Shown here piece by piece: positions 19,464 through 23,783 of a stretch of DNA of 25,280 nt. This stretch comes from a virus (taxonomy: Duplodnaviria > Heunggongvirae > Uroviricota > Caudoviricetes): the IMG/VR virus record IMGVR_UViG_2713896907_000003, one strand, 5' to 3'. A program made the position numbers and the translations under genes. The notes under the pieces were generated by a model. It ran no database searches. It was not told the DNA's origin and was given only the letters and a program-made list of their open reading frames with translations. The first letter of the stretch is position 1; each line of letters opens with the position of its first letter.

Positions 19464-19928
19464 TCACGGTATACACTGGGTACGGATATATTCCTGTGCT
19501 CCTTCCAGTTGCTTCTGCATTGTCATCAGCCGTTCTCTGAGGATGAAATAATCCCGTTCAGCGGTGTCTGCCAGTCGGGGGGAGGCTGCATTATCCACGC
19601 CGGAGGCGGTGGTGGCTTCACGCACTGACTGACAGACTGCTTTGATGTGCAACCGACGACGACCAGCGGCAACATCATCACGCAGAGCATCATTTTCAGC
19701 TTTCGCATCAGCTAACTCCTTCGTGTATTTTGCATCGAGCGCAGCAACATCACGCTGACGCATCTGCATGTCAGTAATTACCGCATTCGCCAGCTTCAGT
19801 TCTCTGGCATTTTTGTCGCGCTGGGCTTTGTAGGTAATGGCATTGTCGCGGTAATGATTAACAGCCCATGACAGGCAGGCGATAATGCAGATAACCAGAG
19901 CGGAGATAATAACGGTTACCCTGCTCAT
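19464..19928 (-). CDS. Rz: Spanin inner-membrane subunit Rz
   Basis: Start at ATG 19928 in ATGA overlap with R; [44 protein letters not shown]... matches lambda Rz. Confidence 0.9.
19526..19708 (-). CDS. Rz1: Spanin outer-membrane lipoprotein Rz1, embedded in Rz in the +1 frame
   Basis: 60-aa [49 protein letters not shown]... with lipobox VVGC and a proline-rich segment, lambda Rz1-like. Confidence 0.85.
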
Positions 19929-20422
19929 TGTTGCCCCCACAAACAGACTTCACGCTCAATCTCGCGGCGAGTCATCAGCCCTTTCCATTGCTTACCGCCA
20001 GCGTATGTCCAGCGCCGTAGCTGATCACATGCGCCTTTGATATCGCCCTGGTTTATTTTGCGAAGAAGCGTCGATGTTCTGAAATTGCCAGCGCCCACGT
20101 TGTAAACGAACGAGTAAAGAGCGCCGCGCGTTGTTTCCGGTATATCGACGTTGATGTACGGGTTAATTTGTCTGGCGACCGTGGCAAGGTCTTTATTCAG
20201 GAGGGCTTTGCATTCTGCTTCGGTATACGTTTTACCGGGCATGATGTCTTTTCCGGTGTGTCCGTGACATACAGTCCATACGCCAACGATATCTTTGTAT
20301 GGTATGTAGCTGACACCTTCCAGACCATCGTTACCACCTGGACCAGTGATGAGCACAGACGCTATGGCAACAGCCCCACCACCAATAGCAGCTGCAACAG
20401 CCTTGCGTAATGACGGCGACAT
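19925..20422 (-). CDS. R: SAR endolysin R (T4-lysozyme-like fold, phage-21 type)
   Basis: 165 aa; N-terminal Gly/Ala-rich weakly hydrophobic segment [20 protein letters not shown] (signal-anchor-release), then E..D..T spacing (E-9-D-6-T) as in T4 lysozyme; resembles R21 as recalled. TAATG overlap with S. Confidence 0.88.
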
Positions 20423-20628
20423 TATTCACCTCTCGCAGCCTTACGCTTATCTTCTTTAATCTTGAAATAAAGATTTGTCAGATACGTCAGCAGGCCAAAC
20501 AGCAGACTTCCCAGCACACCTATTGCCACCCACTGGGACGGAGAGACTTTGTCCAGCAGCTGCAGTAACCAGTATCCCGTCCCCACCGCTGACGTGGTGT
20601 ATGACACACCTGTTGTGATTTTTTCCAT
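20422..20628 (-). CDS. S: Pinholin S (phage-21 type, two transmembrane segments)
   Basis: 68-aa ORF with TMD1 [14 protein letters not shown] and TMD2 [18 protein letters not shown] and a basic C-terminus; sits directly upstream of the SAR endolysin. Confidence 0.85.
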
Positions 20629-20671
20629 CTGATGTATGTCTCCGTCACCGCCGACAGAAAATGAAAGTAAA

Positions 20672-20709
20672 GAAAAACAAAAAAGCCGCCAGTGTCACCC
20701 ACTGACGGC
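20672..20709 (-). terminator. Strong intrinsic terminator ~40 bp upstream of S
   Basis: Minus strand: 10-bp stem GCCGUCAGUG/CACUGGCGGC (one G-U), loop GGUGA, then UUUUUUGUUUUUCUUU. Confidence 0.6.
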
Positions 20710-21075
20710 CAACACCGGGAGCCGTGATTATGGCATTCAGGCTCTGCTAAAAATGCCAGATAACATTCCGGCTCCCCCCCTGATTCAGGTTATAAATGAC
20801 ACAATATCTTGACAACATCCGTCACTGTCTGTCAGAAAATGTACCGCCATATAGAAGCAACATGTGAAGTACATCTATCCTTTTGAGCCAGCACCTCTTC
20901 ACCGAAAGTCAGTGCTGGCTGTTTTTTTCCTTAATAAAGCATCTGTAACTGAAACAATCCGCATATTGATAATATATTGACAGGCATCATTGCTGTCTGT
21001 GAAAAATAAGTCTCTACAAACATATAAGGCCTTTTAGCCAGCGTCTTCTTTCAGGTCAGTCGCTGGCTTTTTTTA

Positions 21076-22917
21076 TTATGCTGCCGGTGCATTTATCTCC
21101 AGCACCAGACTTTCTATCTCAACGCCATACGCTGCATTTTTTGTAACATCCGTCAGCGTCAGCGCATTCAGTCCCAGTGTCAGACTGTCTTTTATAACCT
21201 GGAATGCCGGGCCAGCCACTCCATTCAGTTTCGGAGTAACCGTGGCACTGCCGGCGGTGAACACCAGCTCCAGCGCCTGCCAGTCGTTACTGTAGTTCCC
21301 GAATTCCCCCAGCTTCGTGTTTCCTGACTTCCTGTGGTGCATCAGATTCAGTTTGCCGTCGGTGGTCTGCGTAAAGTACGACATCAGGAACGGATCACCA
21401 GTCCCCGTCATCGTCACACCATCAGGAACAGGAGCGTCTGTGTACAGATAAAGCCCCAGTCCAAACTGGTTGTTTGTCAGAGCACCAGTCAGACGGAACT
21501 TACAGGTCAGCTTCCCTCCCCGGCTCAGCAGTGAGGATGCATTCTTCACCGGATGCGATAGTATCCAGCTTTTACCGCTCTCTTTGACAATTCTCAGTAC
21601 GCCATCCGATAACTGAACGCTGCCCCCGGTAATATTCCACCCCTGAGAAGCAACATCGCCGGCGGAGGCCAGAAGCGATATCGATTCCAGGGATGAGTCA
21701 TCCGGCGACGTAGAGCCACCTGCTGATGGTGTGTTCTCCGGTTTTACACCGGCAATAAATGCCTGTGAGCGCCCTGCCTGCGACAGGATAGCCGAGGCCA
21801 TTCTGTCTGCAATAATCCCACGCCGTGCCCAGGCACTGAAATGGCTCGCACGGTCTGCTGACGTCCAGTTGGCCGATGTCCGGGATGCCGCCCCGTAATA
21901 ACCGGCAGCCACGATATCCGGATCTTCCGTCGGCTCATTCGTGGGCGTGTTTTCACCACTGCCATCTGTCATAAAAGGAACAAAGAAAATATTCTGTGCT
22001 TCCTTTCCTTTATAAGCGCCATACACCGCCTCATATTGTGTGGCGTACTTCTGTTTCCAGATGTATGTGGTGTCGCCACAAATCCACGGCACTTTTTGAG
22101 CGCTTCCACCATGACACTGCGCCGCCATACCGGCAAGGTCGCTACGGAACTGCTGCACCATCGACTGGAATGCTGCAGGCTGCTGAGCATAGCCAGCGTT
22201 TGTCATATCGAATTCACCCTGCATCCAGCATACCGCCAGCAGAACATTTTCAGGATTCTTCGCCAGTGCCGCTTTTGTACGCAGTATCAGATCCTGATAT
22301 AACGGCTTACCCACTCCCCAGCGCGCAGAGTTCTGGCTGGCCCCCGTAGCTTCACTGAATGTACCATCCGCCCCTGCTGTAAATGCTGAACCGCCACGGG
22401 AGCAGGGAACCAGCAGAATCCCGGCATTTTTTGGGATATACGGCAGCAGACGTTTGGCGATATGTAAGCCCTGTCCGACACACCCATACTGACCTTTGCT
22501 TAAATCTGCTTCAGGGTGACTGAACACACTCATATCCTGCACATCATGCAGACAATGATCTGCCGGGATCACATCGTTAAATACACATGCCTCTCCGCCA
22601 GGCGTCACCGTACTGCGACGTGCCAACTGCTTAATACGCGGATCAGGCGCATCATATGAATCAGGAAGAGGAATACCCTCACCATAAGACATGGCATTGG
22701 ACTGTCCGGCCAGCACGACCACGTAGTACCACTCCGGCTCAGTTGTGCCACTGACCACCACATCACCTTCTGCTGCAATCGCCTGCATCAGGGTATAAGG
22801 AGTTATGGCCACAGGGCTACCAAACGGCTGCCAGCCTTCTTTCAGTTTTTGCGTGAGCTTGTCCGCCAGATCTGATGGCGATGCTGCCCGCACAATATCG
22901 TAACGATTAATCGACAT
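21076..22917 (-). CDS. nanS: Phage sialate O-acetylesterase NanS-p type (SASA/DUF303 N-terminal domain, C-terminal beta-rich domain)
   Basis: Start trimmed to ATG 22917 (GGGAGA RBS): MSINRYDIVRAASPSDLADKL...; contains the LAGQSNAMS motif typical of sialic-acid-specific acetylesterases; occupies the post-stx position of Stx-phage late regions. Confidence 0.8.
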   Translation of the reverse strand: MSINRYDIVRAASPSDLADKLTQKLKEGWQPFGSPVAITPYTLMQAIAAEGDVVVSGTTEPEWYYVVVLAGQSNAMSYGEGIPLPDSYDAPDPRIKQLARRSTVTPGGEACVFNDVIPADHCLHDVQDMSVFSHPEADLSKGQYGCVGQGLHIAKRLLPYIPKNAGILLVPCSRGGSAFTAGADGTFSEATGASQNSARWGVGKPLYQDLILRTKAALAKNPENVLLAVCWMQGEFDMTNAGYAQQPAAFQSMVQQFRSDLAGMAAQCHGGSAQKVPWICGDTTYIWKQKYATQYEAVYGAYKGKEAQNIFFVPFMTDGSGENTPTNEPTEDPDIVAAGYYGAASRTSANWTSADRASHFSAWARRGIIADRMASAILSQAGRSQAFIAGVKPENTPSAGGSTSPDDSSLESISLLASAGDVASQGWNITGGSVQLSDGVLRIVKESGKSWILSHPVKNASSLLSRGGKLTCKFRLTGALTNNQFGLGLYLYTDAPVPDGVTMTGTGDPFLMSYFTQTTDGKLNLMHHRKSGNTKLGEFGNYSNDWQALELVFTAGSATVTPKLNGVAGPAFQVIKDSLTLGLNALTLTDVTKNAAYGVEIESLVLEINAPAA

Positions 22918-23003
22918 CGAATTTCTCCCATGCACAGGAATAGAGTAAAAAAGGCCGAAACAGAAGAAAATCACAGGATGAGCATCTGCCAGTGGCAGAT
23001 CGT

Positions 23004-23029
23004 AAAAAAAGGCCGCGCCATGCGCAGCC
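23004..23029 (-). terminator. Intrinsic terminator ~90 bp upstream of nanS
   Basis: Minus strand: GGCUGCGC-AUG-GCGCGGCC (8-bp GC stem, one G-U) followed by UUUUUUU. Confidence 0.5.
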
Positions 23030-23514
23030 AAAACTCACAAGGAAAATGATAAGTAGAATCACAACTTTGATATATGCATGGTCCGGTGGCCGCCCCGGTG
23101 AATTCAGTATCAGCACCTGAATCCGCGCCCCCCAGTATTCCAGCCTGCTGATAACCTCTTACACATGGGGATTCGCCATACGGCAGTATTTCTAATAAAC
23201 AGTAAGTAAAAAAATCAAGCATTATTCAGACTGTTTCTTTTCATCACCGACCACCGTAATGTCACAATCCCACGCATCATCACACCATCAGCCAGTACCG
23301 ACATCAGACGCCCGGTGAAATCCACTGCCACCACCAGAAACAACATGATGACAGTCTGCCCAAAGCGTGCACTTTCCACAGATACTGCCCAGCGGTAACT
23401 GCAGAGCCTGCGCCAGTGGGTAACCAGCCTACGGAGGACGTCACACTGACTATCCCGTAAACCCATCCATGAAAAGCTTTATGGTTGATATGCACCGAAC
23501 GTGGCGCAGATATG

Positions 23515-23549: not shown

Positions 23550-23624
23550 TGGAGCGGGTGGCGGGAATCGAACCCGCATCATCAGCCTGGAAGGCTGAGG
23601 TAATAGCCATTATATGATACCCGC
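23550..23624 (-). tRNA. tRNA with anticodon loop CUUCCAG (anticodon UCC, glyT-like scaffold)
   Basis: 75-nt cloverleaf folded by hand: acceptor GCGGGUA/CACCCGC, perfect T-arm GCGGG-UUCGAUU-CCCGC, perfect anticodon stem UCAGC/GCUGA, CCA encoded. Confidence 0.75.
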
Positions 23625-23627
23625 ATA

Positions 23628-23703
23628 TGGTGCCGACTACCGGAATCGAACTGGCGACCTGATGATTACAAGTCAGTTGCTCTACCATTGGAGCTAAACC
23701 AGC
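23628..23703 (-). tRNA. tRNA-like gene, aberrant (weak anticodon stem; loop CUUGUAA; isotype uncertain, possible pseudo-tRNA)
   Basis: 76 nt with perfect D-arm GCUC/GAGC, T-loop UUCGAUU and CCA end, but the anticodon stem pairs at only 3 of 5 positions and the T-stem has one mismatch. Confidence 0.5.
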
Positions 23704-23708
23704 ATGTT

Positions 23709-23783
23709 TGGCGGGACAGCGTGGACTCGAACCACGATAAGAAGGTTAACAGCCTTCCGTAATGATCTTTATACGACTGACCC
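23709..23783 (-). tRNA. tRNA with anticodon loop CUGUUAA (anticodon GUU, Asn-like by sequence)
   Basis: Perfect T-arm CGUGG-UUCGAGU-CCACG and anticodon stem GAAGG/CCUUC; acceptor stem has one mismatch; CCA encoded. Confidence 0.65.

Follow-up and report, generated by a model that had tools for sequence, protein, structure and literature searches.

Two paralogous modules in tandem at a probable pasA small RNA locus of a lambdoid prophage

The gap between the nanS-p gene and the lysis cassette of the prophage studied here contains two similar hairpins in tandem, and the question is whether they belong to one small RNA gene, to two, or to something else entirely. An initial annotation of the window (the whole stretch of DNA that was analysed, 25,280 nucleotides) had described them as a diverged tandem duplication of a ~45-bp unit. 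Its sequences and coordinates are present in the window as described and the duplication is real, but the unit was drawn too small, as both the promoter-like box and the variable 5' region were omitted: the actual unit extends from about AATAT-TTGACA through the end of the U-run and measures ~120 nt in module 1 and ~105 nt in module 2. The stretch is very probably the pasA sRNA locus of lambdoid (Stx-type) prophages, consisting of two paralogous, gene-sized modules in tandem. The pasA locus, with PasA and a longer form of 236 nt, was already published, so that the reading from raw sequence has re-found a known locus. What is new is that the locus itself is a diverged tandem pair, with a downstream unit homologous to PasC; this is absent from the 2026 survey of Pas sRNAs, which missed the pair because its BLAST filter demanded more than 75% query coverage.

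Position and structure of the locus

Both modules lie head to tail on the plus strand, between nanS-p (21076-23031, minus strand) and the holin gene S (20422-20628, minus strand). The former encodes a nanS-p-type sialate O-acetylesterase with the Pfam domains SASA, DUF1737 and DUF6645, its homologues are annotated as SASA family esterases, and its stop codon (21076-21078) abuts the U-run of module 2. Gene S, the first of the lysis cassette, encodes a class II (phage 21-type) holin (Pfam Phage_holin_2_1, E 1e-32). Pfam searches with the flanking ORFs as well as the annotations of phage 434 and E2348/69 therefore place module 1 between a SASA/nanS-p esterase and a class II holin, on the opposite strand, and pasA and pasC are both reported to sit between sialic acid esterase and holin genes, with NC_011356 named as a PasA phage (Zhu et al. 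2026, bioRxiv 10.64898/2026.05.13.724894). The 451-bp intergenic region has 98% identity to phage 434, YYZ-2008 and Stx1a phages, and the annotation of phage 434 has two terminators here, on the plus strand of the modules.

The closest known system is PasA (E2348CN_0003) of prophage PP2 of EPEC E2348/69. This locus is collinear with the window in alignment A1, the published PasA coordinates fall on positions 20844, 20928 and ~21077, and flanking genes, strand, seed, hairpin and U-run are all as in the window, including a second terminator that abuts the esterase stop codon. The differences are two substitutions within PasA (20845 and 20901), a hairpin 2 loop that is 2 nt shorter in the window and, at the level of the prophage, the absence of stx and a different set of tRNAs in the window. 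The locus is present in 699 of 5426 complete E. coli genomes and, among single representatives of other species, only in E. albertii. A scan for the promoter motif in one genome per species returned 16 matches, which correspond to chance (~17 estimated) plus E. albertii, and hence no distant relatives for covariation analysis.

Evidence that the two modules are paralogues comes from their sequence and from their fixed geometry. Within the 25-kb window, TTGACA-N10-CTGTCTGT is found at 20809 and 20977 and nowhere else, while 0.01 occurrences are expected when one mismatch is allowed. In a global alignment, 83 of 100 aligned pairs are identical (z ~9 against dinucleotide shuffles), and the local score of 33 exceeds the maximum of 27 reached by 1000 shuffles. 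Upstream of TTGACA and downstream of the U-runs the similarity is not significant, so that the homology is bounded by these two elements; a duplication that carried along a piece of the nanS 3' end was considered and dropped, as the flanks beyond the modules have no significant similarity. The two copies had been placed ~155 bp apart, each with a TTGACA ~65 nt before its hairpin. Two copies and two boxes there are, but the spacing is 168 nt from promoter to promoter and 150 nt from hairpin to hairpin, and the TTGACA precedes the hairpin by 69 nt in copy 1 and by 54 nt in copy 2. Across ~70 tandem loci the spacing is fixed at 167-169 nt. The spacer between the modules (20929-20976, plus strand) is a recurrent insertion site of IS629/IS1203-family elements in other genomes.

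A search of sRNA databases, proposed in the initial annotation and run with Rfam at the gathering threshold for the whole window and at E up to 10 for positions 20600-21200, returned only tRNAs and two chance snoRNA-like matches, with no PasA, AgvB, AsxR or STnc100 match at the locus. AgvB and AsxR, prophage 'anti-sRNAs' (Rfam RF02702 and RF02703), resemble the pasA modules in several respects: they are short and bind Hfq, they are encoded in the late region of Stx-type prophages in antisense orientation to late genes, and their 5' part varies while the terminator is conserved. Their position relative to stx and nanS differs from that of pasA, and their covariance models gave no match in the window at the gathering threshold, nor in 20600-21200 with cmscan at E up to 10. 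In the literature on PasA, EcOnc51 and EcOnc52, nothing was found beyond Pearl Mizrahi 2021, Tree 2014 and Zhu 2026.

Module 1, PasA and the two terminators

Module 1 starts with a promoter-like block (20809-20837, plus strand) that consists of TTGACA (20809-20814), a 17-nt spacer with CTGTCTGT and a weak -10-like TCAGAA (20832-20837). The block is nearly invariant among 74 loci, and a start 7 nt past TCAGAA falls on 20844, the mapped 5' end of PasA. A consensus promoter scan calls neither of the two TTGACA boxes, and the -10 hexamers of both are very poor. Moreover, the mature 5' end of PasA was described as a cleavage product of a longer transcript (Zhu et al. 2026, bioRxiv 10.64898/2026.05.13.724894), in which case the TTGACA may not be a -35 element.

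The 85-nt major form of PasA corresponds to positions 20844-20928 (plus strand) by alignment to PasA of E2348/69 (NC_011601.1, 743499 to 743415, minus strand), with 83 of 85 nucleotides identical. PasA of EPEC E2348/69 is a Northern-validated, Hfq-stabilised sRNA of 85 nt (Pearl Mizrahi et al. 2021, PMC8550237), and RIL-seq identified 41 partners with 4983/116 chimeric fragments (PMC8550237). The Northern probe GCCAGCACTGACTTTCGGTGGAGAG, taken as its reverse complement, aligns to 20888-20912 within hairpin 1 with one mismatch. The PasA seed GCCAGCACC (Fig. S5 text, PMC8550237) is found at 20888-20896, where it overlaps the 5' arm of hairpin 1, consistent with the reported overlap of seed and terminator stem (Zhu et al. 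2026, bioRxiv 10.64898/2026.05.13.724894). Module 1 would thus make an abundant, Hfq-stabilised, trans-acting base-pairing sRNA of ~85 nt (20844-20928); these properties were shown in EPEC E2348/69, and we infer them for the window from the 83/85 identity, as the expression data come from near-identical loci.

PasA ends in a CCUUUU followed by hairpin 1 (20879-20928, plus strand), with arms at 20886-20894 and 20912-20920, then G and U7 at 20921-20928. Hairpin 2 has its arms at 21036-21043 and 21061-21068 (plus strand), followed by U7 at 21069-21075. As plus-strand RNA, the hairpins fold with -16.9 kcal/mol (z -3.3) and -16.0 kcal/mol (z -5.9), respectively, and in both cases none of 200 shuffles was as good. 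The stem is kept across variants of the family through compensatory changes: in 14 variants, 95% of the stem cells are paired and three pairs have changed on both sides, while slid controls are paired to 21-49%. Both hairpins have the features of intrinsic terminators, a G+C-rich stem followed by a U-run, with a G preceding U-run 1; a simple terminator scan, which is limited to loops of 8 nt, calls hairpin 2 only in part, as both loops are longer. The published RNA 3' ends 743415 and 743264 (PMC8550237) coincide with the two U-runs. The proposal that the hairpins are plus-strand intrinsic terminators, antisense to the late genes, was therefore correct, and so was the idea that short antisense RNAs end there: the 85-nt PasA has its 3' end at hairpin 1, and the 236-nt isoform and an Hfq-bound RNA have theirs at hairpin 2.

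The two PasA isoforms share their 5' end and differ in the 3' end, which is at 743415 in the major and at 743264 in the minor form (Table S6, PMC8550237). The latter maps to ~21077, the end of module 2, and the 236-nt read-through isoform thus covers both modules (20844-21077, plus strand; Table S6, PMC8550237). Terminator 1 probably lets some transcription through, as suggested by a G that breaks up the beginning of its U-tract and by the existence of the 236-nt form itself, and the read-through RNA would end at terminator 2 (~21077) to give the minor isoform. Terminator 2 adjoins the nanS stop codon and may also keep antisense transcription out of nanS.

The downstream module

Module 2 has a putative promoter-like block at 20977-21005 (plus strand), with TTGACA at 20977-20982, a 17-nt spacer with CTGTCTGT and a -10-like TGAAAA at 21000-21005, followed by an RNA body (21012-21077, plus strand) with a predicted 5' region, CCUUUU, hairpin 2 and U7; a stretch specific for module 2 is CUCUACAAACAUAUAAGG. 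The module appears to be a diverged copy of a gene of the module 1 type: TTGACA, 17 nt and a weak -10, a different 5' region, then the same CCUUUU, stem-loop and U-run. At a minimum, it would provide a second terminator and the Hfq-binding 3' end of the long isoform. As an observation apart, the consensus promoter scan places a candidate, CTGAAA-18-TATATT (20949-20978), shortly before module 2.

The homology of module 2 to its family covers the promoter box, the U-rich tract, the stem and the U-run, and its closest relative at the hairpin is PasC (E2348CN_0005) of prophage PP5. PasC matches module 1 in position and promoter-proximal sequence, and module 2 in the stem of its terminator (AGCCAGCG/CGCUGGCU; 8 of 8 positions identical), in the U-run and in the 3' flank. 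PasC loci have one module, in contrast to the two of the window, and one tandem locus (L172) has the PasC hairpin in the module 2 slot. The loops of PasC and module 2 differ (UCCUUCAGAGUGGG versus UCUUCUUUCAGGUCAGU), so that PasC did not arise by a recent deletion from this very tandem. Alleles with a single module fall into two types, a PasC type and an A* type, and resemble products of unequal crossover in which the repeated arms of the hairpins recombined: an exchange within the 5' arm would yield the PasC type, and the single A*-type alleles can be related to a crossover in the 3' arm or the U-run. In addition, there is a PasA allele that has lost its terminator by insertion of IS1203 in the U-run; it may be the variant called 'PasA-3' in the 2026 survey. 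We also considered solo copies of module 2 as stand-alone genes, but all that were examined are products of IS insertions or rearrangements.

RNA with the hairpin of module 2 has been found bound to Hfq in both EPEC and EHEC. In E2348/69, RIL-seq chimeras at 743267-743294 (minus strand) correspond to the region of hairpin 2; there are five partners and 119/54 fragments, with the module in the sRNA position of 100% of the chimeras and a U-tract of 7. In EHEC Sakai, EcOnc51 and EcOnc52 are orphan Hfq CRAC peaks of prophages Sp12 and Sp4, listed as unvalidated candidates without Northern (Tree et al. 2014, PMC4104026) and cited later as PasA homologues. A shift of ~142 nt lies between the Sakai genome versions NC_002695.1 and.2, and once it is corrected, both fall on the downstream module: EcOnc52 lies over module 2 of Sp4, and EcOnc51, moved by ~+142 nt, over module 2 of Sp12. 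An assignment of EcOnc51 to the PasA hairpin and of EcOnc52 to module 2 was rejected for this reason. The module 2 hairpins of Sp4 and Sp12 are identical and differ from the window in one base of the U-run.

Could module 2 then be an sRNA gene in its own right that is transcribed independently and adds a third member, with its own seed GCCAGCGUCU, to the PasA/PasC group? Tandem paralogous Hfq-dependent sRNAs are known from PrrF1-PrrF2/PrrH of Pseudomonas aeruginosa and OmrA-OmrB of E. coli, and PrrH is a longer RNA that arises by read-through of the first terminator. Both pairs were cited as tandem duplicates by Zhu et al. (2026, bioRxiv 10.64898/2026.05.13.724894). The pasA locus resembles them in having two adjacent homologous sRNA-type units on one strand, and its 236-nt isoform, which starts at the PasA 5' end and runs over both units, resembles PrrH; it differs in that the second unit is only putatively transcribed on its own, and in that its units are prophage-borne, much younger and without a defined regulon. 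That the locus is a true tandem pair of this kind, with a read-through product, is a candidate reading, but we consider it somewhat improbable. Module 2 has the promoter-like architecture of module 1 in the same register (TTGACA, 17 nt, T-N-A-N-AA), and the homology starts exactly at the box; it is possible that this promoter fires independently. In agreement, the 5' edge of EcOnc52 and the predicted start at ~21012 are no more than 1 nt apart, and the peak was called in Sp4 of Sakai even though IS629 has removed the PasA promoter there. However, CRAC peak edges reflect read length and are not mapped 5' ends, and since the module 2 sequences of Sp4 and Sp12 are identical, reads map equally to both: the Sp4 peak may be read-through from Sp12, and it does not indicate where the RNA starts.

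The ratio of module 2 to PasA chimeric fragments rises from 2.4% to 47% between growth conditions, but in the condition in which PasA is expressed the EPEC signal is ~2% of that of PasA, and the published Northern probe covers hairpin 1 and is blind to an RNA of module 2 only. The tandem allele that has diverged most (L203) carries 2 changes over the 29 nt of the promoter block but 4 over the 18 nt of the 5' region, and its spacer has lost 10 nt. Over all alleles, in contrast, spacer and promoter block are equally conserved (6% versus 3% variable sites): module 2 and spacer are uniformly conserved, and a segment-wise polymorphism test for promoter constraint is therefore powerless. The origin of every examined solo copy in an IS insertion or rearrangement, rather than in a retained gene, also speaks against an independent function.

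A still more far-reaching combination, in which module 2 is an independent sRNA with a separate seed, read-through of the leaky first terminator provides a chimeric RNA as third product in the manner of PrrF1/PrrF2/PrrH, and unequal crossover between the hairpin arms generates 'different' Pas sRNAs, is unlikely, albeit not by far. Were module 2 a regulator of its own, the targets now listed under 'PasA' would have to be divided up; were it also true that crossover generates the Pas sRNAs, this would contradict the conclusion of the 2026 survey that tandem duplication has no role in PasA evolution. For work on the prophage sRNAs of pathogenic E. coli, the points of use are the tandem pair, the remapping of EcOnc51 and EcOnc52, the IS1203 allele and the crossover relation.

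The opposite strand, recombination and the 23-codon ORF

The hairpins could also act mainly on the other strand, where stable stem-loops near the 3' end would protect the nanS or late mRNA or serve in its processing, with PasA as a cis-antisense RNA. On the minus strand, the folds are equally good or better (-20.4 and -15.5 kcal/mol; z -4.1 and -6.4). Beyond the modules, between the sRNA cassette and holin S, there is a late-strand terminator-like hairpin (20684-20710, minus strand; an 11-bp stem with 7 GC pairs in the scan), whose counterpart is labelled 'terminator' in phage 434 (OL657226); nanS and late transcripts that run on to this hairpin (20710 to 20684) contain the complementary sequence of both modules in full. 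The region is flanked by a conserved 16-nt inverted repeat, and the nanS 3' end (743175-743305, plus strand) is among the RIL-seq partners of PasA (PMC8550237). The nanS mRNA contains GGUGCUGGAG near its 3' end (21097-21106, minus strand), with 8 nt complementary to the PasA seed and a match to the RIL-seq target motif CUGRUGCUGGA, of which there are also sites in E2348C_0688 and E2348C_1246 (Table S7-type data, PMC8550237). The conserved features are, however, specific for the plus strand (U-runs, CCUUUU, TTGACA box and mapped RNA ends), the Hfq-bound RNAs derive from the plus strand, and the inverted repeat has uncompensated changes. Duplex energies of PasA or module 2 RNA with the nanS 3' end, the start region of holin S or the escD RIL-seq fragment were no better than those of shuffles, which is uninformative either way. 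We regard a main function on the minus strand as improbable; it would be compatible with the plus-strand pasA locus and does not exclude it.

That the repeats are non-functional recombination or insertion scars is very improbable: the region is a hot spot for IS elements and the single-module alleles resemble crossovers between the repeats, but RNA ends map to the repeats, the stems are kept through compensatory changes, the geometry is fixed in ~70 loci and Hfq binding is documented. Of the 'recombination scars' that had been suggested for the locus, what holds is that the hairpin arms look like substrates of unequal crossover; as functional terminators they are not scars.

It is equally hard to believe that copy 1 encodes a peptide of 23 residues. 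The ORF (20796-20867, plus strand), which reads MTQYLDNIRHCLSENVPPYRSNM as first given and is degenerate in module 2, starts 13 nt upstream of TTGACA, and its ATG precedes the mapped 5' end of the RNA by 48 nt and is hence outside the transcript. An AGG is found 7 nt before the ATG, but there is no sign of purifying selection on the ORF: variable codons among alleles are nearly all non-synonymous (8 versus 1 synonymous), codon 19 has four different residues, and one allele has lost the stop. We judge the ORF to be spurious; the ATG...TGA frame is kept in nearly all alleles because start and stop sit in blocks that are conserved at the nucleotide level.

PasA and its tandem paralogue

The sRNA cassette lies within a 450-bp gap that separates two minus-strand genes in the late region of the lambdoid prophage. 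In the late direction, the gap is preceded by a nanS-p-type sialate O-acetylesterase ORF (21076-23031, minus strand; 651 aa with SASA, DUF1737 and DUF6645 domains) and followed by a phage 21-type class II holin (20422-20628, minus strand), then lysozyme and Rz. The gap matches phage 434, YYZ-2008 and many Stx1a phages at 98% identity. The curated record of phage 434 shows two terminators in it on the strand opposite to the late genes, and another on the late strand immediately ahead of holin gene S.

The cassette consists of two related plus-strand modules: TTGACA-N10-CTGTCTGT occurs exactly twice in the 25 kb (0.01 occurrences expected), and modules 1 and 2 align with 83 identities in 100 aligned pairs (z ~9). 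Both end in hairpins for which no shuffle folds as well: hairpin 1 (arms 20886-20894 and 20912-20920, plus strand, then G and U7) folds with -16.9 kcal/mol (z -3.3) and hairpin 2 (arms 21036-21043 and 21061-21068, plus strand, then U7) with -16.0 kcal/mol (z -5.9). These data confirm the diverged tandem duplication proposed in the initial annotation, but not its unit of ~45 bp: the repeated unit is gene-sized (~120 nt and ~105 nt, box to U-run), because the similarity runs from ~AATAT-TTGACA to the U-run; the flanks upstream and downstream of it showed no significant similarity between the copies. Both modules have kept the TTGACA box, CTGTCTGT with an A-rich -10-like hexamer, CCTTTT, the stem, GTCAGT within the loop and the U-run, while the stretch from the box to CCTTTT has diverged.

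RIL-seq has identified five prophage sRNAs in EPEC E2348/69 that were validated by Northern blot and lose stability without Hfq (Pearl Mizrahi et al. 2021, PMC8550237). One of these, PasA, is located on the minus strand of NC_011601.1 between E2348C_0688 and E2348C_0689 (Northern probe GCCAGCACTGACTTTCGGTGGAGAG), starts at 743499 and ends at either 743415 (major form, 85 nt) or 743264 (minor form, 236 nt) (Table S6, PMC8550237). Its locus in prophage PP2 is collinear with the window: our alignment (A1) places the 5' end at 20844, the major 3' end at 20928, the end of U-run 1, and the minor 3' end at ~21077, just beyond U-run 2 and directly next to the esterase stop codon; 2 of the 85 PasA positions differ. 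Since the published 3' ends map to these two sites, hairpin 1 is, by sequence correspondence, identified as the terminator of PasA and hairpin 2 as that of the 236-nt long isoform. Zhu, Shabalina and Storz (bioRxiv 2026, 10.64898/2026.05.13.724894) also locate pasA and pasC between sialic acid esterase and holin-lysozyme genes, and NC_011356, which they name as a PasA phage, is among the 98%-identical matches to the gap. The feature is already known, as PasA, its long isoform and the Hfq CRAC peaks EcOnc51 and EcOnc52; what we add is the reading as tandem paralogues, the remapping of both peaks and a crossover model for the alleles of PasC type and of a further type, A*.

The stem is kept in related prophages, as a covariance comparison of 14 distinct hairpin variants of three types indicates: 95% of cells in the 9-bp helix are paired, versus 21-49% with partners slid, three stem pairs are altered on both sides (C-G to U-A, G-C to A-U) and the covariation score exceeds that of every shuffle. 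Evidence for selection on the stem is modest but consistent, in a family that is young and narrow. The 23-codon ORF that had been noted in copy 1 (20796-20867, plus strand) was rejected as a peptide gene: its ATG precedes TTGACA by 13 nt and the RNA 5' end by 48 nt, eight codons vary non-synonymously (codon 19 is Y, G, N, S or D) and one synonymously, and the stop is lost in one allele. The frame persists because the blocks that contain its two ends are conserved as nucleotide sequence.

Allele forms, distribution and insertion sites

The PasC locus of E2348/69 (prophage PP5) is built of one module only. The promoter-proximal part of PasC corresponds to module 1, whereas the stem (AGCCAGCG/CGCTGGCT), the U-run and the 3' flank (TTTTTTTATTATGCTGCC, with the esterase stop) correspond to module 2, the loop being the only part of the hairpin region that differs from module 2. 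IMG/VR contigs, surveyed by hairpin pattern and separately by promoter pattern, contained ~70 tandem loci, whose promoters are always 167-169 nt apart, 25 single PasC-type loci and 10 single loci with A*, a PasA-like hairpin with a compensated stem change (AGCCAGTAC...GTACTGGCT) that is joined directly to the esterase flank; in two further loci module 2 comes after A*. In one tandem locus (L172), it is the PasC hairpin that occupies the module 2 position. Because PasC, A* and module 2 hairpins all occur beside the esterase stop, this slot holds interchangeable hairpin alleles. The single-module forms are as expected from unequal crossover between the repeated arms: crossover within CCTTTT-AGCCAGC would retain hairpin 2 (PasC type) and crossover within GCTGGCT-T-run hairpin 1 (A* type). 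The model would fit either duplication or deletion as the original event. Zhu et al. 2026 concluded that tandem duplication had no part in the evolution of PasA; the diverged downstream module was missed by their filter of >75% query coverage.

The region is present in 699 of 5426 complete E. coli genomes (median 5 places per genome) and, within a one-genome-per-species collection, in E. albertii only, in agreement with the published restriction to Escherichia and Shigella. A contig of E. albertii NBRC 107761 (L136) carries the whole tandem in the same allele as the window, with 98.5% identity over the surrounding 2.5 kb (L136 3674-6173, window 19681-22180); the best match in a complete E. coli genome is 99.6% over 461 bp.

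In other genomes, this 300-bp stretch is a repeated target of IS629, IS1203 and IS3-family elements, which lie in the PasA U-run and the spacer (~20951-20960), both within window 20921-20976, and inside the module 2 5' region (NZ_CP148374, L129, ~2784; Sakai Sp4, L125, 731; L128/L209; L113; L088). Insertion into the U-run leaves PasA without terminator; this allele may be 'PasA-3', described as terminator-less (Zhu et al. 2026). Plasmid NZ_CP027391 (L127, 2501-2677) and similar large E. coli plasmids of ~94 kb carry, among IS elements, a solo module 2 copy (91% identical) together with part of the esterase 3' end; there, the TTGACA-to-minus-10 block is unaltered and mismatches were acquired in the stem.

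Transcription of module 2

Module 2 could also be transcribed independently, although we lean against this. The box architecture is common to both modules, TTGACA followed after 17 nt by TCAGAA (module 1) or TGAAAA (module 2); module 1 RNA starts 7 nt past the hexamer, at the published 5' end (20844), and the same rule predicts a start at ~21012 for module 2. However, the -10 hexamers are very poor, neither box is called by a consensus promoter scan, and polymorphism does not set the module 2 box apart from the neutral-looking spacer.

EHEC Sakai has two orphan Hfq CRAC peaks, EcOnc51 (Sp12) and EcOnc52 (Sp4) (Tree et al. 2014, PMC4104026). Their coordinates (Table S2, PMC4104026) refer to an older genome version and need an offset to NC_002695.2, which is 0 at 1.180 Mb (from the probe position) and ~+142 nt at 1.268 Mb (stx2B end) and 2.167 Mb (probe core). 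With the offset applied, EcOnc51 also maps to module 2, that of Sp12, and not to the PasA hairpin. Uncorrected EcOnc coordinates placed on NC_002695.2 will be wrong. In Sp4, IS629 insertion has removed module 1, and EcOnc52 covers the remaining module 2, beginning at most 1 nt from the predicted start. Yet the edge of a CRAC peak does not mark a 5' end, the module 2 copies of Sp4 and Sp12 are identical, so that reads multi-map, and all solo module 2 copies examined are products of IS insertion or rearrangement. In EPEC RIL-seq, the region downstream of PasA had 5 partners (119/54 fragments), always in the sRNA position, with one chimera mapped at 743267-743294 (PMC8550237), which is the 3' half of hairpin 2. 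The ratio of this region to PasA changes between conditions (2.4% vs 47%), as separate transcription could explain, but Hfq-bound RNA with hairpin 2 is already accounted for by the published 236-nt RNA.

Late transcripts and flanking features

At the near-identical EPEC locus, PasA is abundant and Hfq-dependent and has many RIL-seq partners, including the esterase mRNA 3' end; a motif that MEME recovered from its targets, CUGRUGCUGGA, is complementary to GCCAGCACC within the terminator 5' arm (PMC8550237). This overlap of seed and terminator stem was noted as unusual (Zhu et al. 2026). The window has GGUGCUGGAG at 21097-21106 (minus strand). The G that opens U-tract 1 would weaken termination and thereby yield the 236-nt form, and terminator 2, flush with the esterase stop, would shield nanS from antisense transcription. 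Late and nanS transcripts would end only at the late-strand terminator from 20710 to 20684 and would therefore hold the full complement of both modules, making sense-antisense pairing and promoter occlusion possible after induction.

This hairpin (20684-20710, minus strand; 11-bp stem, annotated as terminator in phage 434) lies between the cassette and holin S, as does a second terminator-like hairpin at 20755-20772 (minus strand); the former would stop nanS transcripts ahead of the lysis genes in a lysogen. A 16-nt inverted repeat with one mismatch (CAGGTTATAAATGACA / TGTCTTTTATAACCTG; 20786-20801 and 21186-21201) encloses the cassette and the last ~125 nt of nanS (none in 30 shuffles). It is found in tandem and PasC-type loci alike, with arms 384-387 or 231 nt apart, and could form a long-range stem in late mRNA; changes in its right arm are uncompensated.

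Just upstream of the listed esterase ORF start and overlapping it, 23004-23081 (minus strand) has 83% identity to the 3' 78 nt of E2348/69 PasD2, a PasD/STnc100-type terminator region; only the PasD 3' part is recognisable, and Rfam STnc100 did not match this stretch at gathering threshold. Further upstream, a tRNA cluster (23550-23783, minus strand) leaves no space for stx genes before the esterase gene. Rfam recognises three tRNAs and ARAGORN two (Gly-TCC, Asn-GTT); the middle one (23631-23703) has mismatches in the anticodon stem. Sakai Stx prophages have a different set, the ileZ-argN-argO cluster.
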